64,000 nucleotides of DNA from Eledone cirrhosa (taxonomy: Eukaryota): NCBI GenBank assembly GCA_964016885.1, contig OZ024756.1, positions 5,022,001 to 5,086,000 on the forward strand, in the 5' to 3' direction. A program made the translations under genes and the position numbers. Below, one piece after another: positions 8,361 through 63,587 of the stretch. Under the pieces are notes generated by a model. That model was given only the letters and a program-made list of their open reading frames with translations. It ran no database searches and was not told where the DNA came from. Numbering within the stretch: position 1 is the first letter of the stretch; each line of letters begins with the position of its first letter.

Positions 8361-8539
8361 TCTTTGACGAAAGTAGTGAAACTGAACAATAGATCACATG
8401 GAGAAGTTATCTATGATAGACATACAAGCTATCCCATAGATAATGAGCACAACCACAAGGATGTGGTTCGAACATGGACGAGCAGAACTCCCACTGTCAT
8501 CGCCTCCATCTCTCTCGCCCTGCCCATCCCTCTGTATGG

Positions 8540-9051: not shown

Positions 9052-9059
<8 letters not shown>

Positions 9060-9535
9060 AATGAATAATAACAGGTAGACATCATAAAAAGGTAATTTAT
9101 TCCGTGTGCTTACAAGTGTTTCCACGGTGGTACTACAGCCTAGTTATGCTATGTGCAAATTCACAAGTACTTGCAGAACTCAAATATCCAATGCTGTGAC
9201 CACTGTTTCCTCAGAGCAGAATCATTCTGCTCTGAGGAAACAGTGGTCACAGCATTGGATATTTGAGTTCTGCAAGTACTTGTGAATTTGCACATAGCAT
9301 AACTAGGCTGTAGTACCACCGTGGAAACACTTGTAAGCACACGGAATAAATTACCTTTTTATGATGTCTACCTGTTATTATTCATTCTTTATATACACTC
9401 CGGAATACAGAAGGATTAGGAACTAAGTTTCTTCAACAATTCTTCCATGACTCGTAGAGTAACCTCTTACCGTACGTCAACCATATCCAGTGTAGTAATT
9501 AACCATTACTACATCTTGGATAATCCTATACCTAA
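9052..9535 (+). mobile_element. Palindromic hammerhead mini-element (Penelope-like inverted pLTR + tail) in (TA)n
   Basis: Perfect ~170-bp inverted arms 9052-9394 centred at 9223; ~140-bp unique tail; TA tracts on both sides. Confidence 0.8.
9228..9339 (+). ncRNA. Type I hammerhead ribozyme with long stem II (mirror copy 9107-9218 on -)
   Basis: tgct CTGAGGA [a(a)cagtggt-cacagc…gctgt-agtaccaccgtg] GAAAC actt GTA agca; stem I tgct/agca. Confidence 0.7.
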
Positions 9536-10009
9536 TATATATATATATATTTATATATATATGATAATAAGGACGCTGCGGAGTTGCAAATGGGTTACAT
9601 ATGAAAAAAGTTTGTCCTTCATCAGTGGTCTTCCAACCATCATAGGCATTTCATCGCTTTAGAGACCATATACCTCCGGTTGGTGCGAGCAACGGCTAAA
9701 AAAAGTCGTTGGGACACGTAAATAAAGGGGACGCGAGGGTAAAGAAACAAAATGGTGAAGCAACAGACAGTGAGGAAGAGAGAGACAAGTCCCAGATTTC
9801 TATGAATTTAAATTCGGTGAAATCGTGAACGAGAGAATAAAGACCATCAAACCTGGTTGAAATGTGAGCAAGGAAGGAATTTCGCACAGGTCTAACGGGA
9901 GGAAGAAGGGGTCTGGTCTGCGAATTCGGTAAACATAAGTTCTGTGAAATTGTAGACGAGAGAGAGAGAGAAAAAAAATTCATACCAGCTTGGCCAAGAG
10001 TGCGCGAGA

Positions 10010-10474
10010 AAATATACGATATATTAACAAATGGAAACTATATTTATAAAACCATTTTTATTTCATTATACATATTTCAAGGATACCAAGTTAAATTATG
10101 GTGTGCTTTCATCAGATAAAATATAATATAGATCAGTTTTATAAATAAATATTGACATACCCTTAAAGAATGCTTCCAACGAGGTTGACTTTGCCTTTCA
10201 TCCTTACGGGGTCGATAAAATAAAGTACCAGTAATGCACTGGGTAATTGCTGGCCTTGTGCCTAACGTAGAAACAATTATATTTTATCTGATGAAAGCAC
10301 ACCATAATTTAACTTGGTGTCCTTGAAATATATATAATGAAATAAATATGGTTTTATAAATATAGTTTCAATTTGTTAATATATCGTATTTTTACTCCAA
10401 TAATTTGTTGAGTGCTTTATATCAGTTATAAAAATATTTGCATGTTGTATCCCAACAATTTAAATAGAACTTCT

Positions 10475-10480
<6 letters not shown>
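10010..10480 (+). mobile_element. Palindromic hammerhead mini-element, family B, with a SINE-A half in its centre
   Basis: Left arm 10010-10173 is partly the reverse complement of 10279-10389; tail 10390-10480; homologous to 43615-43882. Confidence 0.75.
10280..10344 (+). ncRNA. Type I hammerhead ribozyme (mirror copy ~10059-10123 on -)
   Basis: tattttat CTGATGA aagcacacca taatttaact tggtgtcctt GAAA tatata TA atgaaata. Confidence 0.78.
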
Positions 10481-10537
<57 letters not shown>

Positions 10538-10542
<5 letters not shown>

Positions 10543-10735
10543 AGATTCAGGACCCCGACGGCTGAGCTCTGGCCGTTTCGAAAGCTAGATTCGAACCGAG
10601 TTCGGATCTAGCTGTCGAAACGGCCGGAGCTCAGCCGTAGGGATCCTAAATCTTTTCATATTACCCACTCTACTACCCCAAGTATCGAGTACTCTGGTGG
10701 GTTATGGTCTAGCTGGGTTTTACCACACCCTATTT

Positions 10736-14782: not shown

Positions 14783-14949
14783 AAGTTTAACCCCGACGGC
14801 AGAGCTGAAGCCGTTTCGAGAAATAGCCGTCGAAACGGCTTGAGCTCTGCCGTCGGGTCATACTTTTTCCTATTACCCACTCTACTACCCCAGTTATTGA
14901 GTACTCTGGTGCGTTATTGTCCATCTGGTTCCTTACCACACCTCTTTCG

Positions 14950-14952
<3 letters not shown>
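14783..14952 (+). mobile_element. Palindromic mini-element family C in (TA)n
   Basis: accccgacggcagagc…gccgtttcga / gtcGAAACggcttgagctctgccGTCggg; same tail as 60296, 60876 and 63407. Confidence 0.78.
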
Positions 14953-15342: not shown

Positions 15343-15517
15343 ATACTTGGGGAGGGTCATATTTGTGTAATATTGCCAGAATTAATAACAGAACACACTC
15401 ACTGTTTGGTTGGTTTTCGCTTTTCGCTTCTGTGTCTTTTATATCGGTAATCTAATTTATTCGGTCCTCAATATTGCCATTGACTGACCAACGGTCAAAA
15501 TAATACAGATTCAATAT
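15338..15517 (+). repeat. Dispersed repeat (inverted copy at ~49335-49503)
   Basis: ttgttatacttggggagggtcatatt…ttgccaga…cactcactgttt found as reverse complement at 49335-49503. Confidence 0.7.
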
Positions 15518-15556
15518 CTATATAAACTCTCTATCTATCTTTATGTCCGTCATCTA

Positions 15557-16860
15557 GCGTCCGTCATCTACTACCGCCTGACCGTAGTGCCCTGCCCAAG
15601 GGAAACCCTCACCAAGATGGAGCGCGCGCTCTTCCAATTCCTTTGGAAGAGGCGGGCTCCTATGGTGAGGAGATCCATCTGCTGTCAACACCCTTCGAAA
15701 GGAGGGCTGGGGATGCCGTGGCTAATGATGCGTAAACACGCATTAAGGCTACGGCACCTCTACGTATTCCTCACCGGACAACCGGTGTGGGCCTCGTTTG
15801 TGAGACGAACCTTTCCCAGACTCGTCTCACTCACCGAGCTGCAATCCTGGGTCAAGCAAAGACCGAGAAAACTGGGCGCCTGGCACACTGAGTGTGCCCA
15901 GGCGCTCACCGCCCTCTGGCAGGCGGATCCGGTTATCAGTGGAGACTCCACCGCAACATTCTATAGGGGGCTGGTACGCAGCAGGTGCGACGACGCCCTC
16001 GGAGAAGCCCTAGACATGGAGGAGGACGAACTGGCCAGCCTGTTCGGTAGGACATTCAGCCCGGGACCTATGGACAACTTCCAGAAGTCCCTGGCCTGGC
16101 AGTGCTACCGAGGGGCTTTACCCGTTCGAGAAAGGCTCTACAGACACGGGCGCCCGGGTAGGGACCCCGCCAAAAAGATCTGTCCCAGATGCGTGTGCGA
16201 CGAGGAAACCGTTGCACACGCATTAGTACACTGCTCGGGCGTAGCCGATCTGTGGGGCTATGTCGAACAACTGCTGTCAAGGGTGGGACCGATCCGGTTG
16301 ACCACCGAGTCTATTGTAATGATCAAGCCGCCTCCTCCCTTCAAAGATGAAGCAGAGGCGGTGTTTCTGTGCGTAATAGCCATGGCGAAAGAGGTTGTAT
16401 GGTGGACGCGTCTGAAAGGACTGAGGTCGGGCACCTTTCTCTCTGGCCAACAACTGGTCCGTTTCTTCCGATATCATTTCGGAAGAAGGATCAGGATGGA
16501 GAGAGAGGTGCTGCACCCCAGCCGTTTCTATGAAAGATGGGTGAAAGTGGCGAGAATGGCCCGTGTGAATGGGCCTTCACTCTACATCAGACTATAGGTG
16601 AGGAAGATGAAAGACCAAGGGAGCACCCCTTCTCTGTGCTCCTGAGGAGAAGGGTTGCAACTTTTTTCGGGGGTGTGTGCGACCCCCCAAGGCGCCTCCT
16701 CTCTATTGAGGATTTTGTTAAAAATTTTATTTTTTGTTATATCTTATTTTATTTTTATATTTTGTTATTGCCTCCTCCTTATTGAGGACGCCTTTTTGTG
16801 TAAACTCCCCCCTTTGTACTTGTCCCACTTTTGATGCCCTAGTGGCAAATAAAAGAAATA
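15557..16860 (+). mobile_element. 5'-truncated L1/Tx1-type LINE; intact 336-aa C-terminal ORF 15587-16597 (zf-RVT region) plus 3' UTR
   Basis: FQFLWK…GGLG…CPRC…ETVAHALVHC motifs typical of L1/Tx1 ORF2 C-termini; AATAAA end followed by tatctatct. Confidence 0.9.
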
Positions 16861-20427: not shown

Positions 20428-21135
20428 TAGTTAATGAGCTCATATACATCACAAGGCCTCTCTAAATTTCAAAATCGAGGTTCCACTGGCGGCATTTTGT
20501 CGATTTGCATAACACTATGTGTGAGTCCATAACAAAATTCCAGATACCAAAGAAGCTTCGCTTGACCTAGAACTTTAGCACCATTAAAAAGACAATATCC
20601 TCGGCGTGCCCTTGGGTTAGATGTTCGGATTCGATATTTTACAATATCTATTTGAATAATTTGTGATAAGATTTTACAGTCGTCCATTTATTTAACAGCT
20701 AAGCTTAATGTTAACCTTATAAGCAGTTACTTCCACATATGCTCATAAACATAAGCATACACAATGGAGATATCGAGATAAGCGAATCTATTCATTAATC
20801 GCTAATGTATGTGTATGTTTTTTTATGTGAATACATTCGAGTTTGTTCGTATGACATTTACACAACTATGCAATTTGTTATAAACTTATCATGTTGAATA
20901 TTTAACATTTTTGTGCATCTTGGGAAATACATTACTTTACCTTCCAGACAAATAAGTCTACTTTATGATTTCATCAGTAAGAAGCAGGATTGTCGTTATT
21001 AAACTATTTATTTAACTCGTTTATAAGTAGCTTAGCAGAACGTAACATTTATAATAAATATATAAAAATAGATTTGTAATAAATTTGCAATATAATTTTA
21101 GTAACAGTAAAGATGATAGATTGAATTCACTCACA

Positions 21136-21500
21136 TTGGACGCCATGCTTTGACGTATAGAGTTACGGCCCTTGCCATTCTGAGTTCAAATCCCGCCGAG
21201 GTTAACTTTGCCTTTCATCCTTACGGGGTTGATAAAATAAAGTACCAGTAATACACTGGGTAATTGCTGGCCTTGTGCCAAAACTAGAAACAATTATTGC
21301 AATAGGACGGTGGATTGGCAGTATCGGTAGAGGGTCGGACGCCATGCTTTGAAGCATAGAGTTACGTCCCTTTACGACCTGAGTTCAAATCCCGCCGAGG
21401 TTGACTTTGCCTTTCATCCTTACGGGGTCGATGAAATAAAGTACCAGTAATGTACTGGGTAATTGCTGGCCTTGTGCCTAAAGTAGAAACAATTATTGCA
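21136..21500 (+). mobile_element. Two tandem SINE-A copies
   Basis: Direct similarity to 8166-8360. Confidence 0.85.
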
Positions 21501-21584
21501 ATTGTGTGTGGTTATGGTTGTTTAACCACGGATAGGAACACCGTCAGGTAGACCGTACCTCTAACTGAAAGAGGAAAAGGCTAG

Positions 21585-26188: not shown

Positions 26189-27127
26189 TAGTTTTCTTAA
26201 TTTTGATAGCAATCCACACAAAACCAACTTTGAATCTATGAAACAAAATCACTCATATTAAAGAATGTTTATGTAATTTAACATTTTCCAACATACTTTT
26301 ATATAAGAACCACATGTTAAGTTACTATTGTAGTAATTGAATTAATTAATATCTTTAGCAAATCCTTCTTTATTCTACCTTAGAAATACGGTCATGAAAG
26401 GTTTAATTATTGAAGATATTTGTAAGAGGATTGATAATTGATAGATGCAGAAGCAACCGCAAAAACACTGCACTCAACACCATACTTAAGAACATTTACG
26501 TCAGCACTTTAAGAAAAAAAAAGAAATTTTTTTGAGAAGGCATACATGAGATATTCTCATTTTGTATCTTTTACCCTCTTTCTGTCACCCTCTGCTTGTT
26601 CCTATACCTTTCCTATGCACACACGTCCTCTCAAATTTTCCTTCTCGCATCCATACACCTAAGAATGAATCACTTTATGGTTACGTGATATCGACTGTAT
26701 TTCCTATCAGAGATTGAGAAAGCTTTTCCTGCATTCCACTACTCACGTATTTACAGCTATACAGTTAGGAAAACAAAATCAAAAACGAACATTTCTCTTT
26801 CGTCATTGTTATAGAGAAATAAATCCATTTAACGACTGAAATCACTATCACTGTATTTCTTAGTGGAATGAGAGAGAGAGAAAGAAAAGCTGGTTCTAAT
26901 GTAAGAAGCCCAAACCAAACTGATAGAATGATTACATGCATCCATTTATAAAAGTGTAAAAAACCATACAAGATTGAGAAAGTCAATTTGTTTTATTCTA
27001 TTTAAACTCATATCATCACACAATTTCAAATAGTTTACTTGCCTTAGATTAAAACAAAATTTAGGAATATACATACAAGAATTAATTCCTTTATTCATGG
27101 CTATCAAACCTTCTTTTTTGGTATGAA

Positions 27128-27835
27128 ATAATTGTTTGTACTTTGGGCACAAGGCCAGCAATTATCACAATGCATTACTGATACTTTATTTTATCGACCC
27201 TGAAAGGCAAAGTTAACCTCGGCGGGATTCGAATTTAGACTGTAAAGGTCCGTAACTCTATGCTCCAAAGCATGGTGTCTGACGCTCTACTGATACTGCC
27301 ATCAAATAATTGTTTCTACTTTTGGCATAAGGCCAGCAATTATCCCAGTACATTACTGATACTTTATTTTATCGACCCAGTAAGAATGAAAGGTAAAGTT
27401 AACCTCGGCGGGATTTGAACTCAGATCATAAAGGGCCGTAACTCTATGCTGCAAAGTATGGTCCCCGACCTTCTACCGATACTGCCAATCCATAAAATGT
27501 CTTCCATAATGGTTTCTGATTTAGGAACAAGACCATCAATTCTTTTTGGGGAGGGGAAAGTCGATTAAATCAACCCCAGTGCATTACTGTTACTTTGGTA
27601 TCGACCCCGTAAGGATGAAAGGCAACTGATTCTTAAATAATGGATTCAGATTTAGGCACGAGGCCAACGGTTTTTGGGGAGGGGAAAGTCAATTAAATCG
27701 ATCCCAGTGCTGCGTTAATAGTACTTTAATTTATCGATCCCGTAAGAATGAACGGTAGAGCAAAACTAACTTCGGTGGGATTTGGACTCAGTGTGTAAAG
27801 GGGCGTAATTCTGTCACAAAACATTTTCTCCGACG
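27128..27835 (-). mobile_element. Cluster of four head-to-tail SINE-A copies
   Basis: Repeated ggcacaaggccagcaatt…atcgacccc…aaaggcaaagttaacctcggcgggat. Confidence 0.85.
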
Positions 27836-28185: not shown

Positions 28186-28690
28186 GTTAGGGAAGCAGAA
28201 AATTGCTTTTTGTGATCCAGTTCGTGGTTAAGAAAGCCAGTTTCATGGATGGTTTCAACGTACGGTTAGGGGTAACTCCACAAGTTTGTAAGAATTTCGT
28301 TCAATCTTGGAGTGTAAAGTATAAAAGAGAAAACACAGGTAAGCATTAAGAGAAGGATTTTATCCAGGTATTTACGACCGTTTCATTGGTAAGTGCAACC
28401 TTATATTGCTATACTGCAAATAGCAGCCACTCAATTATAATTGTTGTTCACAGTCCAAATTTTCAAAATAGTAAGTTACTCTTGAAATAATTCTTAATAC
28501 TTAATGATATTAAGAATTATTTCAAGAGTAACTTACTATTTTGAAAATTTGGACTGTGAACAACAATTATAATTGAGTGGCTGCTATTTGCAGTATAGCA
28601 ATATAAGGTTGCACTTACCAATGAAACGGTCGTAAATACCTGGATAAAATCCTTCTCTTAATGCTTACCTGTGTTTTCTCTTTTATACTA
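28186..28690 (-). mobile_element. Palindromic mini-element (arms 28318-28689) with tail related to that of 9395-9535
   Basis: Near-perfect ~180-bp arms; GAAAC ggtc GTA half-hammerhead; tail shares tacactcc…gtRgagtWaccYctWaccgtacgt. Confidence 0.72.
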
Positions 28691-28711: not shown

Positions 28712-28955
28712 TTAGAAAGTGAACAACACAACATTTAACTACTCGATTACCAAACGTTTCTGGATCCCAGACAATATTAATATACGTCTGGATCCGTCAT
28801 CAGACAGAGATGTTATCCGGACGTATATTATTATTGTCTGGGATCCAGAAACCTTTGGTAATGGAGTAGTTATATTTTGTGTTGTCCTCTTTCTAATTAA
28901 ATACCTCTGTTCTATACATAGAGCACTCTTTTTTCCTTCGGAATTACCTAACACA
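28712..28955. mobile_element. Palindromic mini-element with hammerhead at 28744-28807 (-)
   Basis: Minus strand: CTGATGA c ggatccagac…gtctgggatcc a GAAAC gtttg GTA. Confidence 0.65.
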
Positions 28956-28959
28956 CACA

Positions 28960-29171
28960 CAGTTCTACAACAGTTAGTTCACCATACCGAGAACAAATGT
29001 TTCACCTTATTCGGATCGTCAGCTTTTTTAGGCCGAGCTGAGGATCTGAATAAGGTGATGCATTTGTTCTCGGTATGGTGAACTAACTGTTGTGGAACTA
29101 CTTCTACCAAACTCGTCCCATGGACTGAGTGCTCTACCATTACGGATATAACCTTCCAGTGTTCCACTATT
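28960..29171 (+). mobile_element. Palindromic mini-element family D
   Basis: Arms around ccttattcggatc…gatctgaataagg; GAAAC attt GTT on the minus arm; related copies at 42680 and 43971. Confidence 0.7.
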
Positions 29172-29185
29172 ATATATATATATAA

Positions 29186-29600
29186 CCAAAGATTAGTATG
29201 GTTCGTTGATTACTCAATGAATACAATTTTACAATAGATTAGAAGCACTCAACAGTGAAGTTTTCCCGGAGTTTTTAATATTATTCAAAATATTAACAAA
29301 TGAAAAATATTCTCATAATCAAAATATAGACTTTATTATATATATTTCAAAGGTACTGTGTTGTTTTTTCAGTACGCCCTCATCAGACAAAATATATGAC
29401 ATACCGCTACGGTCTTGATTATTCAATTCCAGTATTGGAATTGAATAATCAAGACCGTAGCGGTATGTCTTATATCAAATCATATATTTTGTCTGATGAG
29501 GACGTACTGAAAAAACAACACAGTACTTTTGAAATATATATAATAAAGTATATATTTTGATTATGAGAATTTTTTTCATTTGTTAATATTTTGAATAATA
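29186..29600 (-). mobile_element. Palindromic hammerhead mini-element (family B-related)
   Basis: Arms ~29277-29600 centred ~29433; tail 29186-29276; homologous to 62990-63395. Confidence 0.78.
29487..29548 (+). ncRNA. Type I hammerhead ribozyme (mirror 29331-29392 on -)
   Basis: ttttgt CTGATGA ggacgtactg aaaaaacaaca cagtactttt GAAA tatata TA ataaag. Confidence 0.75.
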
Positions 29601-29671
29601 TATATATATATATATATATATAAAATAAAGTTAAATAAAAGTCAAATGATTAAAATTTAGCTTCGTTTATT

Positions 29672-29726
29672 ACTGCTATATATATTTCAGTGACAGCCAT
29701 CTTTGGCTGTGACCTCTTCAGGCAGT
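29672..29726 (-). ncRNA. Type I hammerhead ribozyme in a TA-flanked insert (29622-29840)
   Basis: Minus strand: actgc CTGAAGA g gtcacagcc aaagat ggctgtcac t GAAA tatata TA gcagt AATAAA; stem I actgc/gcagt. Confidence 0.85.
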
Positions 29727-29839
29727 TTGAATTAGTATGGTATAGACAAGTACATATGTTGTTTAGGTGTATAATATTGTCAATACTCTGATATGCCCAG
29801 TTGCTTGTTTGGTTGTTAATTCACTGAGGAACTGGAGTC

Positions 29840-30154: not shown

Positions 30155-31035
30155 AAAATAAAGTACCAGTAATACCCTGGGATAATTGCTGGCCTTGTGC
30201 CTAAAGTAGAAACAATTATTCAAGTTTGGATTGGCAGTATCGGTAGAGGGTCGGACATGCTTTCCAGCATATTTACGTCCCTTTACGATCTGAGTTCAAA
30301 TCCCGCCGAGATTGACTTTGCCTTTCATCCTTACGGGGTCGATAAAATAAAGTACCAGTAATGCACTGGTAATTGCTGGCCTTGTGCCTAAAGTAGAAAC
30401 AATTATTTAAGTTGGCAGTATCGGTAGAGGGTTGGACGCCATGCTTTCTAGCATAGTTACGTCCCTTTACGGTCTGAGTTCAAATCCCGCCGAGGTTGAC
30501 TTTGCCTTTCATCCTTACGGGGTCGATAAAATAAAGTACCAGTAATGCACTGGGATAATTGCTGGCCTTGTGCCAACATTAGAAACAATTATTTAAGTAT
30601 CATATACATATATATAATCACACTAGTATCAGTTGTCTTTCATCCTTAGTGGGTCGATAAAATAATATACCAGTAATGCAATGGGGTTCATTTAATCTAC
30701 ACCGCCCCCTTCAAATTGCTAGCCTTGTGTTTAAAGTAGAAACAATTAAGTATCAGTTGCCTTTCATCCTTACAAGGTCGATAAAATAAAGTACCAGTAA
30801 CGCACTGGGATCGATTCAATCATCCCCCGTCCCCTCACCAACAAAAAAATTGTTGGTCTTATGCCTAAATCAGAAACGATTAAAAGTGTGGTAGATTGGC
30901 ATCATCACAAATTAGCTTTGCTATTCATTCTTACGTGTCTATAAAATAAAGTACCATTGATACACTAGGATCTATTTATCGACTTTTCCCCTATCTTCAT
31001 ATTGCTGGCCTTGTCGCCAAAGTGGAAACAATTAT
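30155..31035 (+). mobile_element. Head-to-tail cluster of ~6 SINE-A copies and halves
   Basis: Repeated gataaaataaagtaccagtaa…gtagaaacaatta. Confidence 0.85.
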
Positions 31036-41405: not shown

Positions 41406-42227
41406 ATTCGTTTAGTGATATGCTGCTTGCAGGAAAAAAACACGTCGTTTTGCTCGTGCGTCCAGCAGACATATGAGTTCCTGAAAGGGTCTCCCAGCCA
41501 TCGTGCTTGCTCTTGTTTTTACCAAAACAATCTCTTCGGAACACACACACACACATATATATGTAAATGTGTGTGTGTGTGTGTGTGCAACATGATAAAT
41601 AAGATGGGTGTAGAGTGCTTTATATCAGCAGAAGTGCTCTGTAGTTGAATAAGGAAGATAGTATACAACATTCTTTAGACTACTTTTTAGTTTCATACCG
41701 GGGCATGGTTTATAAATATTAAGACTTGGGGATTGCCGAACAGTCGTATGGATATAGCTCCAAGAAAATGATCTGTACCAGTAGAAAACTAGACGGTAGC
41801 CGACGTAATGTTATATAGCTCAAATAGTTGTACATAATAGTATATAGATGTAGTAGGTTAAGATGCTGTGACTAAAGGAATATTACAATTTGAGACATTG
41901 TAATTCACACTTGAAAATCGGTTTTTAATATTGTGTAAACCTCTAATTGAGAATGTATTTGTGCATGTCTCTCTATGAATGTATACGTGTGCGTATATGT
42001 ATGTGAGCGTTGATGTATATGTATGTAAGTGTTCATGTATATGTATGTAAGTGTACATATACATATGTTTATCTACTTGTATATGAATAACTATGTATAT
42101 ACATTTTTATACGCACTTCACTAATATATTCATGTGTAATGTTATTTGCGAATATACATATTTTCCTCTTTGCTTGTTTCCTTAAAGCGTATCATCCTTC
42201 CGTTGGTATATATTTATTATGCAATTT

Positions 42228-42285
42228 ACACCTGATGAGGTCACCGGGTTCTTACGCAACCTGGCCACTGAAATGTGCATAGTGT
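42228..42285 (+). ncRNA. Type I hammerhead ribozyme
   Basis: acac CTGATGA g gtcaccggg ttcttacgcaa cctggccac t GAAA tgtgca TA gtgt; the insert ends in (TA)n at ~42345. Confidence 0.72.
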
Positions 42286-42341
42286 TTACAGCAATAAGAA
42301 CTTAAGGATATTCAACATATCTGGCCTCCTGGCATTTCACT

Positions 42342-42387
<46 letters not shown>

Positions 42388-42389
<2 letters not shown>

Positions 42390-42658
42390 TACGTTATTCC
42401 GGGTTGAATCGGAGGTAACCACAGTAAGTAAGGTACTCAATACATTGCAGAGTATAAAAGTTTTAATATAGATGAGATTCTACAGGACTAGAACTGTTTC
42501 ATTCTTTAGAAATCATCATGAATCTGGGTATCAAAAAATAAGTATGGTATTTATAGGTCCTATAAATACCATACTTATTTTTTGATACCCAGATTCATGA
42601 TGATTTCTAAAGAATGAAACAGTTCTAGTCCTGTAGAATCTCATCTATATTAAAACTA
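42388..42658 (-). mobile_element. Palindromic mini-element in (TA)n with variant hammerhead (42592-42640 and its mirror)
   Basis: Arms 42460-42657; gattc ATGATGA tttctaaagaat GAAACAG ttctagtc CTGTA gaatc; tail with actc…gtattgagtac. Confidence 0.68.
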
Positions 42659-42679
42659 TATATATATATATATATATAT

Positions 42680-42782
42680 AGTGGTAGAACACTGGAAGGT
42701 AATATCCGTAGTGGTAGAGCTGCGGATCCGCTAAGGTGAACCAATTGTTCTCGGTATGGTGAACTAACTGTTGTGTAACCAC

Positions 42783-42787
<5 letters not shown>
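42680..42787. mobile_element. Family D mini-element, rearranged (inverted tail + body)
   Basis: Reverse-complemented tail joined to a body ending at gtaaccacttc|TA. Confidence 0.65.
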
Positions 42788-42839
<52 letters not shown>

Positions 42840-43585: not shown

Positions 43586-43614
<29 letters not shown>

Positions 43615-43616
<2 letters not shown>

Positions 43617-43879
43617 AAAGTTCTATTTAAATTGTTGGGATACAACAAGCAAATATTTTTATAACTTATATAAAGCACTCGACAAGTATTTGTCACTATC
43701 CTGATGTCTTCCAAAAGTAAAGGTTGCATTTTGAAAGGGTACGTCAATGTTTATTTATAAAACTGGTATATATTGTATTTTGTCTGATGAAGGCATACCA
43801 TAATTTAACATGGTATCCTTGAAATATGTATAATAAAATAAATATGGTTTTATAAATATAGTTTCCATTTGTTAATATC

Positions 43880-43882
<3 letters not shown>
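43615..43882 (+). mobile_element. Family B mini-element (inverted tail + body) with hammerhead at 43776-43840
   Basis: tattttgt CTGATGA aggcatacca taatttaaca tggtatcctt GAAA tatgta TA ataaaata; TA tracts on both sides. Confidence 0.78.
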
Positions 43883-43970
<88 letters not shown>

Positions 43971-43975
<5 letters not shown>

Positions 43976-44190
43976 GGTAACACAACAGTTAGTTCACTGA
44001 GAACAATTGTTCTCAGTATAGTGAACTAACTGTTGTGTAACCACTTCTACCTAACTTGTCCCATGGACTGAGTGCTCTACCACTACGGATATTACCTTCC
44101 AGTGTTCTACACACAGACACATACATACATACATACATACATATAGGAAACGAGTCAGGACCCCGACGGCTGAGCTCCGGCCGTTTTGAT
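43971..44190 (+). mobile_element. Family D mini-element plus family C fragment
   Basis: acaacagttagttcact…gtgaactaactgttgtg palindrome; ggaccccgacggctgagctc at 44158. Confidence 0.65.
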
Positions 44191-44279
44191 AAGCATATAG
44201 AGAGAAGTAGACAAAGAGATAGGTGTTCAATTATAGGGGAGTTAAAACGATCCGAGTGAGGAACGTATTAACTGCGGAA

Positions 44280-47610: not shown

Positions 47611-48120
47611 AAGGTATAAAAATAATATGGTATCTAGATAAGGATCTGTGTTATTGAGTTCCCTGAATGACGATAACTCAATGCCGCATACATTGATCTG
47701 CTTACTATGTTATTATTAAATATCTTTCTATATATTTATATTAAATTCCACCAATTTCCAGGAACTGAACAGAAGTGAAGAAAAAACGGGAGTCAAGTTA
47801 GTTGTAGGTGGAAAAATAGCGAGAAATAGGAAAATGTCACATAAAAGGGATTGAGTGAGAGGGAATTTATATTATAGATTGATAGATAAATATATAGTTA
47901 GATAGATTTATATCGATAGGGCGATAGATATATAGTTATATAGAACGATAGATAAATAACTATATATCTATCGTTCTGCTCATATTAGTATCTATAAATC
48001 TATCTAACTATATATCAAAATAGATAGATTTATAGATACTAATATCGACAGAACGATAGATATATAGTTAGATAGATTTATAGATACTTAGATAGAGCGA
48101 TAGATATATAATTAGATATG

Positions 48121-49062
48121 TTTCTTTATTAACCACAATGGCACAAAAGAAGGGGACAAATACAAAGGGGGAAGTTTACATACAATAAAAACGTGCAAAA
48201 TATTATCATAAATTCAATTTAAAAATTAGTCGATTTTCCCAAATCGGGGGAGACAGTTCATATGGGTAACACATACCCCCGAAAAATAATGTGCAACCCT
48301 CATCTCCAGGAGTACGAAGAGTTTGTACTCCCTTTCTCTCCTCCTCTTTTTCCTCAACCTACAGGCTGATATAGAGAGAAGGTCCATTCACTCGGGCCAT
48401 TCTCGCCACTTTCACCCACCTTTCATAAAACTTGATGGGGTACAGCACCTCTCTCTCCATCCTGATTCTTCTTCCCAGTAGTATTTGAAAAAAGAATCAG
48501 TTGTTGGCCGGAGAGAAAGGTGTCTGACCTCAGCCCTTTCAACCTTGTCCACCATACAACCTCTTTCGCCATAGCTATCACACAAAGGAAAACCGCCTCT
48601 CCTTCGTTTTTGAAGGAGGGTGGTGGTTTGATCATGACAATGGACTCGGTGGTTAACCGGATTGGTCCCACCAGCGACAATAGTCGTTTTACATAACCCC
48701 ACAGGTCGGTGACGCCCGGGCAGTGTATGAATGCGTGCGCGACGGTTTCTTCGTCTCGCACGCACCTCGGACAGATCTTTTTTGCAGGGTCCCTGCCCGG
48801 GCGCCCATGTCTGTAGAGCTTGTCTCGAACTGGTAGAGCTCCTCGGTAGCACTACCAGGCCAGGGACTTTTGTAAGTTGTCCATCGTTCCCGGGCGGAAG
48901 GTCCTACCAAACAGACTGGCCAGTTCGTCTTCCTCTACGCCTAGAGTTTCACCGAGCACGTAGTCACACTTGCTGCGGATGAACCCTCTATAGAGTGACG
49001 AAGTGGAGTCTCCACTGATCGCCGGTTCCGCCTGCCAGAGGGCTGTGAGCGCCTGAGCACAT
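48121..49062 (-). mobile_element. L1/Tx1-type LINE 3' fragment (degenerate)
   Basis: ETVAHAFIHCPGVTDLWGY…AMAKEVVWWTRLKG; close to 56000-56697. Confidence 0.88.
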
Positions 49063-49561
49063 TTGATGGGGTCGATAAAATAAAGTACCAGTAATACACT
49101 GGGTATTTGCTGGCCTTGTGCCTAAAGTAGAAACAATTATTTAGATAGTTAAATAGATAGATAGATTGATAAATATAGAGAGTTATATAGGCGATGAATT
49201 TGTTTTGCAAGGCTTTTGATATGAAATCGTGTGTTGAAACAAATATTGTTCTATTTCAGTGGTACCATTGATGATGTCACGGGTGTGTGATGAAAGAACT
49301 TTGATAGACTATATATATATATATATATATTTATATCTGTATTTTTAACTGTTGGTCAATTAATGATAAACATTGATTGCCAGATAAATTAACTATGGAG
49401 ATATAACATATACAGAAGCGAAAACCAATCGAAACAGTGAGTGTGTTTTGTTATTATTTCTGGCAATATTATAACAATATGACCCTCCCCAAGTATAACA
49501 ATATAGTTAGATAGATTTATAGACACTTACATATACAACCCGATGGATTCATAGATAGATA

Positions 49562-50050
49562 TATTTCTTCATTTGCCACAAAGGTGTACAAAAATGTGAT
49601 ATTACAAGAAGTGACGGCGGGGGTTTTACATAACATCTTTAACAATAATGAATAACAATAAACTATATATAAAATAAAATAAAACAATCGAAATACCCAA
49701 TAGGGTGGAACGTTACTGCGGGGTTGTTTTACACCCCGTGGATAGAAAAACCCTCAACACCAGGAGCACGTTTTGTAGGTGTTCCTGTCGTCTCTCTGTT
49801 TGTCTTCCACAACTTACAGGCTTATATACAGAGAAGGCCCATTCACTCGGGCCATTTTCGCCACATCACTCACCTTTCAGCGAAACTATTGGGGTGTAGA
49901 ATCTCTCTCTCCACTCTCACCTTCCTTCTGAAGTGGTACTTAAAGAAGGGGGTGATATGTTGTCCGGAGAGAAAGGTGTTTGCCCTCAGTCCTTTTAACC
50001 TCGTCGACCATATTACCTGTTCCGCCATAACCACCAGACAGAGGAACACA
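49562..50050 (-). mobile_element. L1/Tx1-type LINE short 3' fragment (diverged subfamily)
   Basis: cactcgggccatt…, ccttttaacctcgtcgacca homologous to the 3' end of the other copies; flanked by GATA repeats. Confidence 0.75.
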
Positions 50051-50904: not shown

Positions 50905-52490
50905 GGTTATGAATTGTAATGATATGAGAACTATGTTAGAGTAAAATGGCCTAGAATATGTTTATAGACTGGTGATATAAGAGGTTAGAGTTAAAAGAAG
51001 ACACCTCTGGAAGATGTGTCAGGACTGTGGTGATACGAGAGCTGTGTTAGAGCAGAGAACCCTGGATGGTATGTTTGGACTGTAGTAATACGAGAGCTGT
51101 GTTAGAGCAAGGGACACTGGATGATGTATTTGGACTGTAGTGATACCAGAGATCTATTAGAGGAAAACCACTGGAAGATGTTTGGATTGTGATGATACGA
51201 GAGCTGTGTTAGAGCAAAGAACCCTGGAATATGTTTAGACAGTGGTGATATAAGAGCTGTGTTGCAGCAAAGAACCCTGGAATATGTTTAGACAGTGGTG
51301 ATATAAGAGCTGTGTTGCAGCAAAAACCCTGGAATATGTTTGGACAGTGGTGATATAAGAGCTGTGTTACAGCAAAGAACCCTGGAATATGTTTAGACAG
51401 TGGTGATATAAGAGCTGTATTGCAGCAAAGAACCCTGGAATATGTTTGGACAGTGGTGATATAAGAGCTGTGTTACAGCAAAGAACCCTGGAATATATTT
51501 GGACAGTGGTGATATAAGAGCTGTGTTACAGCAAAGAACCCTGGAATATGTTTGGACAGTGGTGATATAAGAGCTGTGTTACAGCAAAGAACCCTGGAAT
51601 ATATTTGGACAGTGGTGATATAAGAGCTGTGTTACAGCAAAGAACCCTGGAATATGTTTGGACAGTGGTGATATAAGAGCTGTGTTACAGCAAAGAACCC
51701 TGGAATATATTTGGACAGTGGTGATATAAGAGCTGTGTTACAGCAAAGAACCCTGGAATATGTTTGGACAGTGGTGATATAAGAGCTGTGTTGTAGCAAA
51801 GAACCCTGGAATATGTTTGGACAGTGGTGATATAAGAGCTGTGTTACAGCAAAGAACCCTGGAATATATTTGGACAGTGGTGATATAAGAGCTGTGTTAC
51901 AGCAAAGAACCCTGGAATATGTTTGGACAGTGGTGATATAAGAGCTGTGTTACAGCAAAGAACCCTGGAATATATTTGGACAGTGGTGATATAAGAGCTG
52001 TGTTACAGCAAAGAACCCTGGAATATGTTTGGACAGTGGTGATATAAGAGCTGTGTTACAGCAAAGAACCCTGGAATATATTTGGACAGTGGTGATATAA
52101 GAGCTGTGTTACAGCAAAGAACCCTGGAATATGTTTGGACAGTGGTGATATAAGAGCTGTGTTACAGCAAAGAACCCTGGAATATGTTTGGGCCGTGTTG
52201 ATACGAGAGCTCTGTTAGAGCAAATAATTCTGGATGATGTGTTTAGACTGGTGATACAAGGGCTGTGTTTGAGCAAAATATCTGGAATATGTTTGGGCCG
52301 TGTTGATACGAGAGCTGTGTTACAGCAATGAACCCTGGATGATGTGTTTGGACTGGTGATACGAGAGCTGTGTTACAGCAATGAACCCTGGATGATGTGT
52401 TTGGACTGGTGATACGAGAGCTGTGTTACAGCAAAACCTCTGGATGATATATGTTTGGACTGTGGTGACACGAGAGCTGTGTTTGAGATG
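50905..52490 (+). repeat. 53-bp satellite, ~30 copies, homogeneous core 51200-52190
   Basis: Unit gagctgtgttacagcaaagaaccctggaatatRtttggacagtggtgatataa. Confidence 0.95.
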
Positions 52491-53786: not shown

Positions 53787-56698
53787 GCACGTTGGTACTA
53801 TGTGGGAGCATGTCCAGAAAACGTGGGGTGTAACAGCCTCAAACAGTTAATCGGCCGATTTGACCTGGCCGATAGATATCGACTAGATTTTCCGACTGTG
53901 CCACTGTGGACGTGGACTAATCTTAGCGGAACATCTAGATCGTACCTAGATATGGTTCTAGTTAGAAATAAGGATAGGGAGATGTTAAGCTGTCCACAAA
54001 TGTTCATGGTTGCCTATTCAGATCACAAACTAGTGACCTGCATGGTCAACCTTGATAGAACCCATAGACAAGGACCCGGCTACTGGAAGCTGAATTTGTC
54101 GTTACCGACATGCAAAGCCTACAGTAGACGGATTAGGACTTTAGTTAAACAGCACTTGACAGGGGTCATTGTCAACAACAGATGGTGGTACTCTCTCAAG
54201 AGGGCAGTTAGATTAGACTCGTTAGTTTTAGTAAAAAATTAGCGTTAGATAGAAATAGAACCGAGAAGGAACTGGTAGATAAAGTAGAAGAGGCAATTAG
54301 AAGTGGCAACGTAGCCAGCGTGCTAGCAACGAGAACGGCCTTGGACCAGTTCTTCGACGCAAAGCACGAGGGCTGCGTTGTCAGAAGCAAAATACGAGCT
54401 CTGGGAAACGAGGGAGCCAAAGCTGTTAGCTGGGCCCAAATGACGGAGGCAAAAAGTGCAACAAGTCCACGATTCGGTCTTTGAAGGACCAACACGGACG
54501 CGTGATACGTGAGCCGAAGCAGATGTGTGCGGCCTTTCAGCGGCACTTTTCTCAACTGTTCGGGCAGGGCGGCGCGCTGGGAGGGCTATAGATTTCGGTC
54601 CATACCTCGACGGCCTACCGCGACTCTCGGACAGCGAGGCGAAGTTCTGCGAAAGGCCGATTTCAGCCGCTGAGATAGGGGACGCGCTGAGCCAATGCGG
54701 CAAACGCAAATCGCCAGGTCTCGACGGTCTACCCTACGAATTTTACGTAGCAATGCCGGACTTATTCTCCGGTCTCCTGGAAGCGGTCTACTGCAACTGG
54801 CAACAGAACGGGAGAATTTCCAGTTCTGTGACCGGGGGCGTAGTCACACTAGTAAGGAAGGACGAGAATAAGGGGGATGACATAGGCAACTTCCGGCCCA
54901 TAACTCTGCTAAACAGAGAGTTACATATTTTAGCCAAGGTGTTGGCAAAGAGGCTGGCGCTTGTTGTCGAGAACCTGGTGGGAGAAGAGCAGACATGCGC
55001 AATCCCGACCAGGTCCATACAAGACAACCTCCACCGCATGCGATACATCATAGAGAGGGTAGGGTGTAAACCCGGCTTCGGTGGGGCCCTGATCAACTTG
55101 GATCAGTCTAAGGCTTTCGATAGGGTTGAACATCGTTACCTGGATGCGGTGCTCCGGCGGCAGGCTTCGGACCCGTGTCCAGGGGCTGGATTGCTGCAAT
55201 GCACAACAGCAACATCTGATCAAGGGTCAAGGTGAACGGCTATCTCTCGGAGCCGTTCCATATCACGCGATCCATTCGACAGGGATGCCCTCTCTCCTCC
55301 TTTCTGTACGTACTGACACTGAAGCCACTGCGGAAGTTGGAGCTATTGCAGAGAATCCCTCTGGAACCGGGACTGCGGAAAGCGGCGTCGGCCTACGCCG
55401 ATGACATAACAGTAATGGTGTCGAGCGCCTCGAAAATCGAGGAAGTCGGCACCTTACTGAAGGAATGCGAAGCTGAACTGGGAAAAGTCCATCGGTTTGC
55501 AACTCGAATCGTGGAGAGACAAGCCGATGCCTTCCGATGGCGTCGCCGGACGCTGGACGAAAGGACCGGTAAAGCTGCTCGGTGTCTGGTTTGGTCCGGA
55601 CCTCCAGGTGGAGAAGAACTGGAACGAGGTGACGGCCAAGGTGTTTGCACTAACCCAGAAGTGGGCCGAGTGCAAACTATCCTTGAATAGTCGAGCGGAG
55701 GTGGAGAACACTTTTATAGCGTCCGCCATCTACTACCGCTTGACCATCGTGCCTTGTCCAGCCAAACGCTCACCAAAATGGAGCGCACGCTCTTCCAATT
55801 CCTTTGGAAGAGGCGGGCTCCTTTGGTGAGAAGATCAATTTGCTGCCAACACCCTTCCAACGGAGGGCTGGGGTTGCCGTGGTTGACGATGCTCAAACAC
55901 GCGCTCAGGCTGCGGCATCTCCACGTATTCCTCACCGGACAACCGGTGAGGAATACGTGGAGATGCCGTGGAGATGCTACCGAGTAGCTCTACCAGTTCG
56001 AGACAGACATGGGCGCCCGGGCAGGGACCCTGCAAAAAAGATCTGTCCGAGGTGCGTGCGATACGAAGAAACCGTCGCTCACGCATTCATACACTGCCCG
56101 GGCGTCACCGACCTGTGGGGCTATGTAGAACGACTATTGTCGCGGGTGGGACCAATCCGGTTGACCACCGAGTCCATTGTCATGATCAAACCACCACCCT
56201 CCTTCAAAAACGAAGGAGAGGCGGTTTTCCTTTGTGTGATAGCTATGGCGAAAGAGGTTGTATGGTGGACAAGGTTGAAAGGGCTGAGGTCAGACACCTT
56301 TCTCCCCGGCCAACAACTGATTCTTTTTTTCAAATACCACTTTAGAAGAAGAATGAGGATGGAGAGAGAGAGGGGCTGTACCCCAGCAAGTTTTATGAAA
56401 GGTGGGTGAAAGTGGCGTGAATGGCCCGAGTGAATGGGCTTTCTCTCTATATCAGCCTGTAGGTTGAGGAAAAAGAGGAGGAGAGGAAAGGAGTACAAAC
56501 TCTTCGTACTCCTGGAGATGAGGGTTGCACATTTTTTGGGGGGTATGTGTTACCCATATGTAATGTCTCCCCCTATTGGGGAAAATCGACTAATTTTTAA
56601 ATTGCATTTGTGATAATATTTTACACGTTTTTATTGTATGTAAACTTCCCCCTTTGTATTTGTCCCCTTCTTTTGTGCCCCTGTGGCTAATAAAGAAC
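53787..56698 (+). pseudogene. Frameshifted L1/Tx1-type LINE ORF2 (APE C-terminus, RT, zf-RVT) plus 3' UTR
   Basis: SRSYLD…SDHK…GPGYWKLN (APE end), KSPGLDGL, NFRPITLLN, LDQSKAFDRV, RQGCPLS, AYADD, CPRC…AHAFIHC spread over several frames. Confidence 0.92.
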
Positions 56699-56760
<62 letters not shown>

Positions 56761-56762
56761 CT

Positions 56763-57170
56763 CTAAAGGGTTGAGGTCAGAATCCTTTCTCTCCGGCAAG
56801 GAACTGATTCGTTTTTTCAAATATCATTTTGGAAGAAGAATCAGGATGGAGAGAGGTGCTGTACCTCAGCAAATTTTATAAAAGGTGGGTGAATGTGGCA
56901 AAGATGGCCCGAGTGGTTGGGCCTTCTCTCTATATAAGCCTGTAGGTTGAGGGAAGAGAGGAAGGGAGTACTCACTCTTGGTGCTCCTGGAGATGAGGGT
57001 TGTACATTTTTTCGGGGTGTGTACAACCCCTGTGTAACGCCTCCCCCCTATTGGGGATATCAATTGTTATTTGTTATTTTATTAATAGTTATATTTTCGT
57101 ATACCTGTATGTTAACTCCCTATTTGTATTTGTCCCCTTCTTTTGTGCCCTTGTGGCTAATAAAGAAATT
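56763..57170 (+). mobile_element. L1/Tx1-type LINE short 3' fragment
   Basis: KGLRSESFLSGKELIRFFKYHFGRRIRME plus 3' UTR; between (TCTA)n tracts. Confidence 0.85.
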
Positions 57171-59934: not shown

Positions 59935-60276
59935 TGTTTAAATAGTGTATTTTGCAATACACTGTATGCTTAATTAATAGCATTTCGAAGACCTTACGCT
60001 ATTGTTTTAGAGTAGTGACAGTCTCACTTACTTTAATTTTCAGCAAACAGGCGGAGTACTTAGCTTTGATAAGCACCAAAAAGTGCGAAACAGAGCTCTG
60101 TCAGCTTTCTCTCCCCTGTTTGCTGAAAATTAAAGTAAGTGAGACTGTCACTACTCTAAAACAATAGCGTAAGGTCTTCGAAATGCTTTTAATTAAGCAT
60201 ACAGTGTATTGCAAAATACACTATATATACATTCATATATATATATATATCGCTATTTTAGAGCACCAATTCTAAT
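59930..60276. mobile_element. Palindromic mini-element family E (second copy 60514-60830)
   Basis: Arms ~59931-60051 / 60115-60237; degenerate hammerhead tg CTGAAAA…cttc GAAA tgct…agca TA ca. Confidence 0.6.
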
Positions 60277-60295
60277 ATATATATATATATATATA

Positions 60296-60484
60296 TAGGA
60301 ACCAGTAAGACCCCGACGGCTGAGCTCAAGCCGTTTCGACGGCTAATTCTCTTGAATTAGCCGTCGAAACGGCTTGAGCTCAGCCGTCGGGGTCTTACTG
60401 GTTCCTATTACCCACTCTACTACCCTAAGTATTGAGTACTTTGGTGCGTTATGGTCCACCTGGTTCCTTACCACATTTCCTTCG

Positions 60485-60488
<4 letters not shown>
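60296..60488 (+). mobile_element. Family C mini-element in (TA)n
   Basis: Perfect arms 60295-60408 around gaattag; GAAACGGC…GCCGTC ggggtc. Confidence 0.8.
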
Positions 60489-60518
<30 letters not shown>

Positions 60519-60824
60519 CGATTGGTGCTCTGAAATGGCGATGTATACATGAATCGCCGAAAAGAAGTAAGTGACATAGTCACTACTTTAAAACCGATAG
60601 CGAATGGTCTTCTAAATGTTTTTTAATTAAACAAACGGTATATTGCCAAATATACTATACATACATACATGTATACATCGCTATATCAGAGCACCAATAG
60701 TAATACCTAATTTTTGCTGGACCGGCGATCACTCTGTATAATCAGCCCCTGATTATTACTGGAATTCTATGAGGATCCAGCTTTTATAATTTTACGGTAT
60801 ATTGCCAAATATGATATACATACA

Positions 60825-60875
<51 letters not shown>

Positions 60876-60881
<6 letters not shown>

Positions 60882-61048
60882 AAGTATGACCCCGACGGCA
60901 GAGCTCAAGCCGTTTCGAGGGCTATTTCTGGACTGAAATAGCCGTCGAAACGGCTTTAGCTCTGCCGTCGGAGTAATACTTTTTCCTATTTCCCACTCTA
61001 CTACCCTAAGTATTGAGTACTCTGGTGCGTTATGGTCCATCTGGTTCC
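60876..61048 (+). mobile_element. Family C mini-element in (TA)n
   Basis: Centre ggctatttc tggact gaaatagcc. Confidence 0.8.
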
Positions 61049-61119
61049 TTACCACAATTCCTTTGTTATATATATATATATATATATAAACACACTAAGC
61101 CATATGATCCACTGAGTAT

Positions 61120-62211: not shown

Positions 62212-62258
<47 letters not shown>

Positions 62259-62262
<4 letters not shown>

Positions 62263-62976
62263 TATGTACACGTACATACATATATGTATACAGACGTACA
62301 GTAGTATGTATATATATATACATGCAAACATATATATATGTACGTATAGATTCATCGAACATTTATTATAATGCTCGGTGTGTTTGTAAACAAACATCCC
62401 GTATTAAGCCGTAGTGTCTAGCAACCATCGTTGCTCGTTTGTTCAACACTGACAAAGGAACGCTGTACTAGTTTCAAGCTTATTAGCTATCGTCAGCAAC
62501 GTATACCTTCCTGCCAGATCGTTGAACGTATATACTTACCTTATGCATATTAACGGCTGAGTAGCCCAATTTGCATATCGAGTGGGTTAATCGGCCGGGT
62601 GCACCGAAAACGATAAACGGAAAAAATGAAAGAAATTTAATTTCCCACTCTTAGTACGGCTGTTACTTAAATATAAGTATGTAGACGTACATACATATAT
62701 GTATACAGACGTACAGTAGTGTTGAACAAACGAGCAACGATGGTTGCTAGACACTACGGCTTAATACGGGATGTTTGTTTACAAACACACCGAGCATTAT
62801 AATAAATGTTCGGTGAATCCATACGTACATATATATATGTGTGCATGTATGTATATAAATATGCATACTACTGTACGTCTGTATACATATATGTATGTAC
62901 GTGTACATACTTATATTTAAGTAACAGCCGTGCTAAGAGTGGGAAATGAAATTTCTTTCATTTTTTTCCGTTTATA
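62259..62976 (-). mobile_element. Retrozyme/pLTR-like element: 1.1 head-to-tail monomers (~415 nt) plus inverted arm, in (TA)n
   Basis: agtatgtaSacgtacatac at 62261 and again at 62676; 62718-62975 is the reverse complement of 62261-62450 plus tail. Confidence 0.75.
62461..62501 (-). ncRNA. Minimal type I hammerhead ribozyme
   Basis: Minus strand: cgttg CTGACGA t agct aata agct t GAAAC ta GTA cagcg; palindromic stem III ACTAGT. Confidence 0.85.
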
Positions 62977-62989
62977 TATATATATAAAT

Positions 62990-63395
62990 ATAATTAAAAG
63001 TTTAACAAGGTTCAATGAATTAATCAATGAATAAAGTTTCACAATAGATTATAAGCACTCTACAGTAGGGTTTTCTGGAGTTATTAATATTACTTCAAAA
63101 TATTAATAAATATAGACATTCATGTGATCAAATATATTTTATTATACATATTTCAGAGATACTGAGCTATTTCAACAGTACGTCCTCATCAGATAAAATA
63201 AGTTGATGCCTGACATACCTTGACTATGTTGATGACTAAATTATAACCATCAACATAGTCAAGGTACGTCAGGCATCAACTTATTTTATCTGATGAGGAC
63301 GTACTGTTGAAATAGCTCAGTATCTCTGAAATATATATAATAAAATATATTTGATCACATGAATGTCCATATTTATTGATATTTTGAAGTAATAT
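62990..63395 (-). mobile_element. Palindromic hammerhead mini-element (family B-related)
   Basis: Arms ~63087-63394 centred ~63241; tail homologous to 29186-29276. Confidence 0.8.
63282..63347 (+). ncRNA. Type I hammerhead ribozyme (mirror 63135-63200 on -)
   Basis: tattttat CTGATGA ggacgtactg ttgaaatagct cagtatctct GAAA tatata TA ataaaata; 8-bp stem I. Confidence 0.82.
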
Positions 63396-63406
63396 ATATA
63401 TATATA

Positions 63407-63584
63407 TAGGAACGAGTAGGACCCCGACGGCTGAACTCAAGCCGTTTCGACGGCTAATTCTGAACGGCTAATTCTGAGCTCAGCCGTCGGGGTCCTACTC
63501 GTTCCTATTACCCACTCTACTACCCTAAGTATTGAGTACTTTGGTGCGTTATGGTCCTCCTGGTTCCTTACCACATTTCCATCG

Positions 63585-63587
<3 letters not shown>
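63407..63587 (+). mobile_element. Family C mini-element in (TA)n
   Basis: Same arms and tail as 60296-60488. Confidence 0.78.

Follow-up and report, generated by a model that had tools for sequence, protein, structure and literature searches.

The locus at 62259–62976 raises the question of how a hammerhead-bearing sequence that encodes no protein came to run from its own tail directly into its own head. The candidate answers are reverse transcription of an RNA with a genuine unit of about 415 nt, or a by-product of a larger, coding element. The initial annotation favoured the former, and read the locus as a head-to-tail, circularly permuted monomer left by a circular or multimeric self-cleaving RNA. 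We analyzed the insertion within its window, the whole 64-kb stretch of DNA considered here.

Read along the minus strand, the insertion consists of an antisense arm (62975–62718), the 53-nt end of a body (62720–62668), a tail, a unique segment U, a hammerhead, a body and (TA)n. The body (62253–62465, minus strand, from the cleavage site to the 3′ end) contains two small hairpins followed by AT/AC-rich sequence of low complexity, and is closed in all three frames. Its 3′ end, the presumed start site 1 of the reverse transcriptase (RT), merges into the (TA)n target repeat at 62216–62260 (period 2, 22.5 copies). Segment U (62497–62612, minus strand) carries a splice-donor-like motif and the 5′ strand of helix I; it extends for 116 nt from the end of the tail to the ribozyme core, in agreement with the unique segment of about 115 nt annotated initially. 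The tail (62613–62667, minus strand, 55 nt) is recognized as the extension of the inverted arm past the body end, and its own end constitutes both the tail-to-U junction and the presumed RT start site 2. The upstream copy is truncated at its 5′ side to the last 53 nt of the body (62668–62720, minus strand) and repeats 62253–62305 directly at 415 bp, with 96% identity and a single internal mismatch. When periods of 405–424 were tested, 415 alone gave an exact run of at least 15 nt (36 nt, 62270–62305), and the proposed period is thus confirmed. The order of tail and head and the 415-bp repeat sustain a head-to-tail arrangement, but the sense part amounts to merely 1.13 units, with one 53-nt overlap and one ribozyme, and TRF found no 415-bp array at the locus.

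The inverted arm (62718–62975, plus strand, 258 nt) covers the body from 16 nt past the cleavage site and the tail, lacks the ribozyme core and ends in (TA)n. It matches the body in 193 of 204 columns, with internal differences of four substitutions and two short indels, and the upstream piece plus tail in 107 of 116 columns, with three substitutions and one indel; these alignments establish that it closes the insertion, as had been claimed. A TA-rich spacer (62972–62996) forms the right target flank and is followed directly by the hammerhead palindrome of another family. On either side, the insertion ends in (TA)n at one of the two tail boundaries, and the presence of (TA)n on both flanks makes a target duplication unreadable. 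The three copies within the insertion differ in 2–3% of their bases, as for a single insertion event, and each has private substitutions. Arm and sense copies differ by seven substitutions; in three of them, read in the RNA sense, the sense copies have A where the arm has G, a number too small to point to RNA editing of the template. A BLAST search with the element and its parts returned internal repeats only, that is, no second copy in the 64-kb window. A 28-nt exact pattern of the element had no match in prokaryotic genome contigs, as expected.

The absence of coding sequence noted at the outset holds. The longest open frame around the 415-nt period has 59 codons (49 from an ATG), the longest in body and tail is a low-complexity frame of 51 codons, and there is no RT or GIY-YIG ORF in the element. 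A 54-codon frame through U, one of three, matched no Pfam family and has no protein homology. The two matches that it gave among 1.84 billion proteins, each summed from repeated weak matches to repetitive surface proteins of bacterial type, were rejected as artefacts.

A strict type I hammerhead descriptor matched twice in the window, once in the element and once spuriously across a TA run at 29824, and never in 30 shuffled windows. The ribozyme of the element (62441–62527, minus strand) has its core C3 at 62496, GAAA at 62475 and a GUA site cleaved after 62466. Helix I comprises 6 bp and continues beyond an internal loop into a long extension; helix II is formed by a U.U pair and 3–4 bp with a loop of 6 or 4 nt, and helix III consists of 2 bp around a palindromic UA loop, with 6 bp possible between two copies. 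An unpaired U after helix I and the A that closes loop 2 could presumably form the usual tertiary contact of hammerheads. The 91-nt ribozyme has a minimum free energy (MFE) of −28.7 kcal/mol (z −3.2, 1 of 200 shuffles as good) compared to −25.9 for the active fold evaluated directly; the 51-nt core taken by itself is unremarkable (z −0.17). Rfam yielded no match at the gathering threshold and no hammerhead among 81 matches up to E=10, and the identification rests, therefore, on the core motif and the fold. The sub-gathering Rfam matches were of miRNA type and driven by the palindrome, and were not accepted.

The minimal hammerhead annotated initially at 62461–62501 is indeed a single type I hammerhead with cleavage after GUA; by its helix sizes, however, it belongs to the canonical metazoan class and not to the minimal class with a long helix II, according to the definitions in the available text of PMC4209133. 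Canonical-sized type I hammerheads are described in retrozyme repeats, and minimal ones with a long helix II in coding Penelope-like elements (PLEs) (PMC7229834 and PMC4209133, available text). Nine cores in the window were compared, of which seven have a long helix II and two, the one in the element and one at 29022, a compact helix II. The palindromic 2-bp helix III suggests that cleavage would occur as a dimer, as predicted from the structure. With a single ribozyme, the locus cannot release a monomer or a circle by itself.

The insertion is very probably of PLE type, without an ORF. This assignment is made because the insertion marks published for PLEs are all present, namely a partial tandem, an inverted 5′-truncated neighbour, a tail at one end, a (TA)n target and a hammerhead in the terminal repeat, and because the insertion begins and ends at the two tail boundaries. 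In the literature, a PLE insertion is a partial tandem in which a truncated copy precedes a full one; an inverted truncated copy often lies next to it, one end bears a 30–40-bp tail, and microsatellites are preferred as targets (PMC8557442, PMC3846280, as far as their available text goes). According to the accessible part of PMC11167929, the purified PLE protein of the anole nicks AT-rich DNA and extends both strands. Two internal positions on the RNA, one at each boundary of the tail, serve it as start sites; uncleaved RNA is preferred, and none of the reads ended at the ribozyme site. Pseudo-LTRs (pLTRs) are sufficient in cis for mobilisation in trans (PMC3846280, in part).

The EN+ PLEs, such as Penelope of D. 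virilis, Poseidon PAc of the anole, Pen1-6 of Adineta and Neptune, share with the element the partial tandem, the adjacent inverted 5′-truncated copy and the one-end tail, in addition to an AT-rich or microsatellite target, a hammerhead in the terminal repeat, a donor ahead of the ribozyme and microhomology at the 5′ join. In contrast to them, the element has no RT or GIY-YIG ORF. Its tail is also longer (55 nt versus 30–40 nt), and its ribozyme is compact, whereas theirs are minimal with a long helix II; the D. virilis variant shares the 2-nt palindromic loop of helix III (from the available descriptions). In the portion of the literature at hand, ORF-less elements with pLTRs, head-to-tail insertions and movement in trans are known as MRC1 and other non-autonomous Chlamys elements, and as solo pLTR structures in Adineta. 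The Chlamys elements of green algae, likened here by description only, mostly lack canonical hammerheads, unlike the element. Non-autonomous PLEs with head-to-tail insertions are reported from Chlamydomonas (PMC8557442, in part), and two 13-nt motifs were not found in the part of the supplement of that paper that was available. In Octopus, families of the Penelope kind are described as abundant and recently active (PMC13282606, PMC8967140), and Naiad PLEs of octopus as favouring (TA)n (supplement of PMC8557442), each in the accessible part of the source.

We hold with moderate confidence that the insertion is a non-autonomous retroposon of Penelope type with a genuine non-coding family unit of about 415 nt (tail, U, hammerhead, body), which an autonomous PLE copies in trans through its RT/GIY-YIG protein. 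Such a unit would be, in effect, a pLTR minus the ORF. In the proposed mechanism, the endonuclease would nick both strands of the (TA)n tract. A first cDNA, started from site 1 at the body end, would copy the ribozyme in uncleaved form, then U and the tail, and finally 53 nt of the unit before. A second, from site 2 at the tail end, would stop with 16 nt left to the cleavage site, and three shared bases would then serve to join both cDNAs. Because the first cDNA would run into the preceding unit, its template would be longer than one unit. By analogy with animal non-LTR retrozymes, this template could be a circle that arises by double self-cleavage and ligation; alternatively, it could be the read-through transcript of a tandem master copy. 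The proposal that the tail-to-head junction derives from reverse transcription of a circular or multimeric RNA is thus retained in one part, since an ORF-less hammerhead copy of more than a unit was made via RT. The junction is not diagnostic of a circle, because an ordinary partial tandem of a PLE, a template jump or an internal deletion yields the same letters.

The genuine unit is favoured because of the compact ribozyme, the size, the GC content, the non-coding body and the circular fold, features that link the element to retrozymes. The unit has 415 nt and 36.9% GC, and retrozyme repeats are given as 150–450 bp with GC below 50%, those of the mussel as 350–390 bp (PMC7229834, in part). 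Animal non-LTR retrozymes, as the accessible parts of PMC7229834 and bioRxiv 10.64898/2026.07.22.740005 describe them, resemble the element in their canonical type I hammerhead with a weak palindromic helix III, and in a non-coding unit of a few hundred nucleotides with GC below 50%, a well-paired predicted circle and a head-to-tail order; an axolotl family has the same U.U pair at the base of helix II (PMC7229834, same scope). The element differs in its 1.13 units, single ribozyme and splice-donor motif, and descriptions of an inverted arm, a tail or a (TA)n target for retrozymes were not found in the available text of either source. The preprint, in the part at hand, takes two ribozymes as the sign of an active retrozyme; the locus has one ribozyme and a 53-nt overlap, and is not filed as an active retrozyme. 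The copy works like the product of one. It is probably dead as a donor of circles, because it has one ribozyme and its transcript folds to one long hairpin, predicted across the locus with the ribozyme in the loop.

Folding of the monomer, which the initial annotation had put forward as a check, gives a stable, self-paired circle of −122.1 kcal/mol (z −6.6, none of 100 shuffles as stable), in which helices I and II are formed, mostly with pair probabilities of at least 0.9. Without the low-complexity part the z-score is −4.3. The z-score stems largely from local hairpins, which would be present under every rival history. Pairing of the tail with U across the junction looked convincing in the MFE structure, but controls gained as much in 197 of 500 shuffles of U, 89 of 500 shuffles of the tail and 307 of 600 segments of the window. 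As it is no better than chance, this pairing is lost as support for a true 415-nt unit. Pairing of tail and body was likewise discarded as evidence (311 of 1000 shuffles equal). Besides the chance-level pairing, the single copy in the window, the single ribozyme, the chimera at 60510–60830 and the tail of 55 nt instead of 30–40 nt argue against a 415-nt family unit. The donor 43 nt before the core and the distance of 116 nt from junction to core resemble, by analogy, the leader of a coding Penelope. A true unit, a template jump and an internal deletion would all leave identical letters at this locus.

A chimera made by template jumping is possible, although doubtful. RT that begins within the leader of a coding PLE, at site 1, would copy body, ribozyme and U, run off at a truncation point or at the 5′ end of the transcript, and resume on a different RNA from site 2. 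The 415-bp period would then be a by-product with no 415-nt RNA behind it, though dimers of this kind might give rise to a retrozyme. In favour of such a jump, the junction coincides exactly with the tail end, an RT start site, and U matches a Penelope leader in length and in its donor. Its 116 nt from junction to core compare with 121 nt (46 + 75) in D. virilis Penelope from the transcript start to the intron end (PMC2377424), which meets helix I (PMC4209133, both sources in part). Short cDNAs that consist of the pLTR only are also expected, since the RT start sites of the anole PLE lie 111–118 nt into the ORF, just behind the ribozyme (PMC11167929, in part). Other ends in the window stop 1–53 nt before the core (four measured) and, in one case, about 100 nt before it (43685–43784). 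Donors similar to that of U are found before 4 of 11 other cores, no significant pairing spans the junction, and a second junction of a tail to foreign sequence at 60705 (60510–60830) means that chimeric tail junctions occur in the host genome. Recurrence of the junction in other copies, which the initial annotation had put forward as a test, would be expected also from a jump off a fixed 5′ end of the transcript. At the place where the ORF of the anole and rotifer elements starts, however, body and tail lack an open frame (51 codons at most), although the parent may have had a long leader that was non-coding or intronic. Moreover, the compact ribozyme is of a type associated with retrozymes, and re-initiation at site 2 is a step proposed here and not taken from any paper.

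An internal deletion in the partial tandem of an autonomous PLE, in this copy or its immediate parent, is unlikely. The original order would have been pLTR, ORF and pLTR, and the break would lie inside U; ORF loss would leave the observed order of tail, unique sequence, donor and ribozyme. There is precedent in a deletion derivative of a rotifer PLE flanked by inverted pLTRs (PMC3846280) and in a 2.8-kb internal deletion of a Chlamys copy (PMC8557442), as their available text reports. The arms, however, are only 2–3% diverged, so that a deletion after insertion would have had little time to occur, and U holds no coding remnant (no Pfam family in its 54-codon frame, with protein matches weak and summed). 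As U is free of coding signs in the one frame of three searched, neither the template jump nor the deletion gains from it.

A third alternative combines the true unit with splicing. The splice-donor-like motif reported in the unique segment is there, as a perfect match at 62542–62534 on the minus strand, 43 nt ahead of the core; MAG/GTRAGT occurs four times in 128 kb, or 0.0036 times per 115 nt. Of the acceptors in the 278 nt scanned, just one has a good pyrimidine tract, and it lies 91 nt from the donor. Together they delimit a candidate GT-AG intron (62449–62539, minus strand) with a pyrimidine tract and a CAG acceptor, which spans the whole ribozyme core; the intron of D. virilis Penelope ends instead at helix I, as far as its available description goes. 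The inverted arm starts at this candidate acceptor, the place of the inversion junction and its 3-nt microhomology (62718–62720). From these features one may construct a retrozyme family of cephalopods in which a PLE reverse transcriptase uses the 415-nt circle itself as template, with the two start sites and the inverted arm as its traces. The ribozyme would lie wholly in the 91-nt intron, and the transcript would either cleave itself to the 415-nt replicon or be spliced to a 324-nt, ribozyme-free unit. We regard this combination as quite improbable. Under this reading, the precise stop of the arm at the acceptor would reflect a template that was spliced or in the course of splicing; it is one coincidence, explained also by stalling of RT in the long helix I, and serves as a lead only. 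Similar donors are found within 80 nt before the core in 4 of 11 other cores of the window, against a background of 97 of 1598 bins, and the four belong to related families. If the splice-or-cleave reading is true, the insertion itself would be evidence for a partnership of PLEs and retrozymes, so far argued from co-occurrence and trees, and for a splice-or-cleave switch, of which no description was found in the literature searched. Very improbable is a local DNA rearrangement or an assembly artefact of a palindromic repeat without RT of a longer-than-unit template: the region is rich in microsatellites and palindromes, which trouble assemblies, but each copy has private substitutions and both ends stop in (TA)n at tail boundaries, as in neighbouring families.

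The idea of a self-cleaving circle is not new. Circles as templates of PLE copies longer than a unit were proposed in 2014 (PMC4209133), retrozyme circles have been shown in coral, mussel and axolotl (PMC7229834), a 2020 review found metazoan retrozymes without a motif that identifies a helper (PMC7761336), and the derivation of retrozymes from PLEs as non-autonomous elements was argued in 2026 from co-occurrence and trees (bioRxiv 10.64898/2026.07.22.740005), each according to the part of the source at hand. With retrozymes, their circles and their PLE origin already published, the element is a further ORF-less member of the Penelope/retrozyme group, ordinary in kind. The literature search returned no description of its family or of a cephalopod retrozyme; the supplements of PMC7229834 and of the 2026 preprint, the Zenodo Octopus repeat library and subscription papers could list the family. 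If the 415-nt unit is a family, it adds a retrozyme, probably of a cephalopod, that carries the insertion marks of PLEs, and the significance is modest. The element also bears on the origin of PLE partial tandems, an open question in the available text of PMC2377424, and its unit is short enough to tell a circle from read-through and from a template jump. As a product of a jump or a deletion, it would simply add to the short PLE ends that are so numerous in the window.

The window is repetitive animal DNA, with 21% masked as tandem repeat. Twenty-two palindromic or end-like loci were examined, of which nine, including the element, have a full hammerhead core; several more are read as carrying the 3′ half of a hammerhead, and most touch (TA)n and have a one-sided tail. 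Short palindromes and ends of several families lie on (TA)n, often side by side, at 9057–9480, 10006–10490, 28324–28683, 28712–28960, 28961–29175, 29188–29597, 29600–29800, 42150–42350, 42385–42800, 43600–44120, 59945–60280 and 62997–63400; with their whole or truncated hammerheads and one-sided tails, they are read as terminal fragments of PLEs. Kinship of the element with 16 other loci of the window was not accepted: the best results (7, 13, 25 and 35 of 2000 shuffles) were picked from 128 comparisons with four parts on both strands.

Several of these loci have features of their own. In a group of related families, a splice-donor-like motif lies 19–46 nt before the hammerhead core, at 63219, 29462, 29405 and 10161, and variants of it stand before 63290 and 43784. 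The 360-bp near-perfect palindrome at 28324–28683 has three inward donor-like motifs per arm and no full hammerhead core. A family of six copies (10539–10727, 14784–14950, 44144–44194, 60298–60485, 60878–61066 and 63409–63585) is truncated inside the ribozyme; by eye, its 3′ half apparently has a long, stable helix III and a GUC site, compared with the weak helix III elsewhere. The locus at 60510–60830 consists of an inverted tail, a body and a tail, followed without a TA spacer by a foreign 75-nt segment and a diverged 57-nt body end, and is apparently chimeric, a second junction of a tail with other sequence. An ACTC...GAGT hairpin pattern matches at 16 positions (7813, 10394, 10667, 14879, 21644, 29111, 29247, 34597, 34607, 42435, 42856, 54903, 60414, 60995, 63057 and 63514), 11 of them in the tails of otherwise dissimilar families soon after the body end, where, to judge from this recurrence, it may serve as a recognition signal for RT. 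This tail hairpin is absent from the element studied.

Among the 98 open frames of the window, 16 were scanned for PLE proteins and none was found. Four of the 16 matched RVT_1 or zf-RVT, all in a LINE-type element, and none matched GIY-YIG. Broken copies of this LINE-type RT element, with RVT_1 and zf-RVT, lie at 15488–16860, 48120–50050 and 54200–57170, and we take it to be L1-Tx1-like. The best named relative of one of its RT frames is a cuttlefish protein with 55% identity, the one named protein among 120 listed of 177 matches, which makes a cephalopod the probable host. A SINE-like repeat of about 190 bp is abundant and sometimes arranged head-to-tail (8166–8363 and about a dozen relatives); relatives stand in tandem at 21135–21503, 27123–27541 and 30161–30605, and one lies inside a hammerhead palindrome at 10180–10280. 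A 53-bp minisatellite forms an array of about 1.5 kb at 50923–52487.
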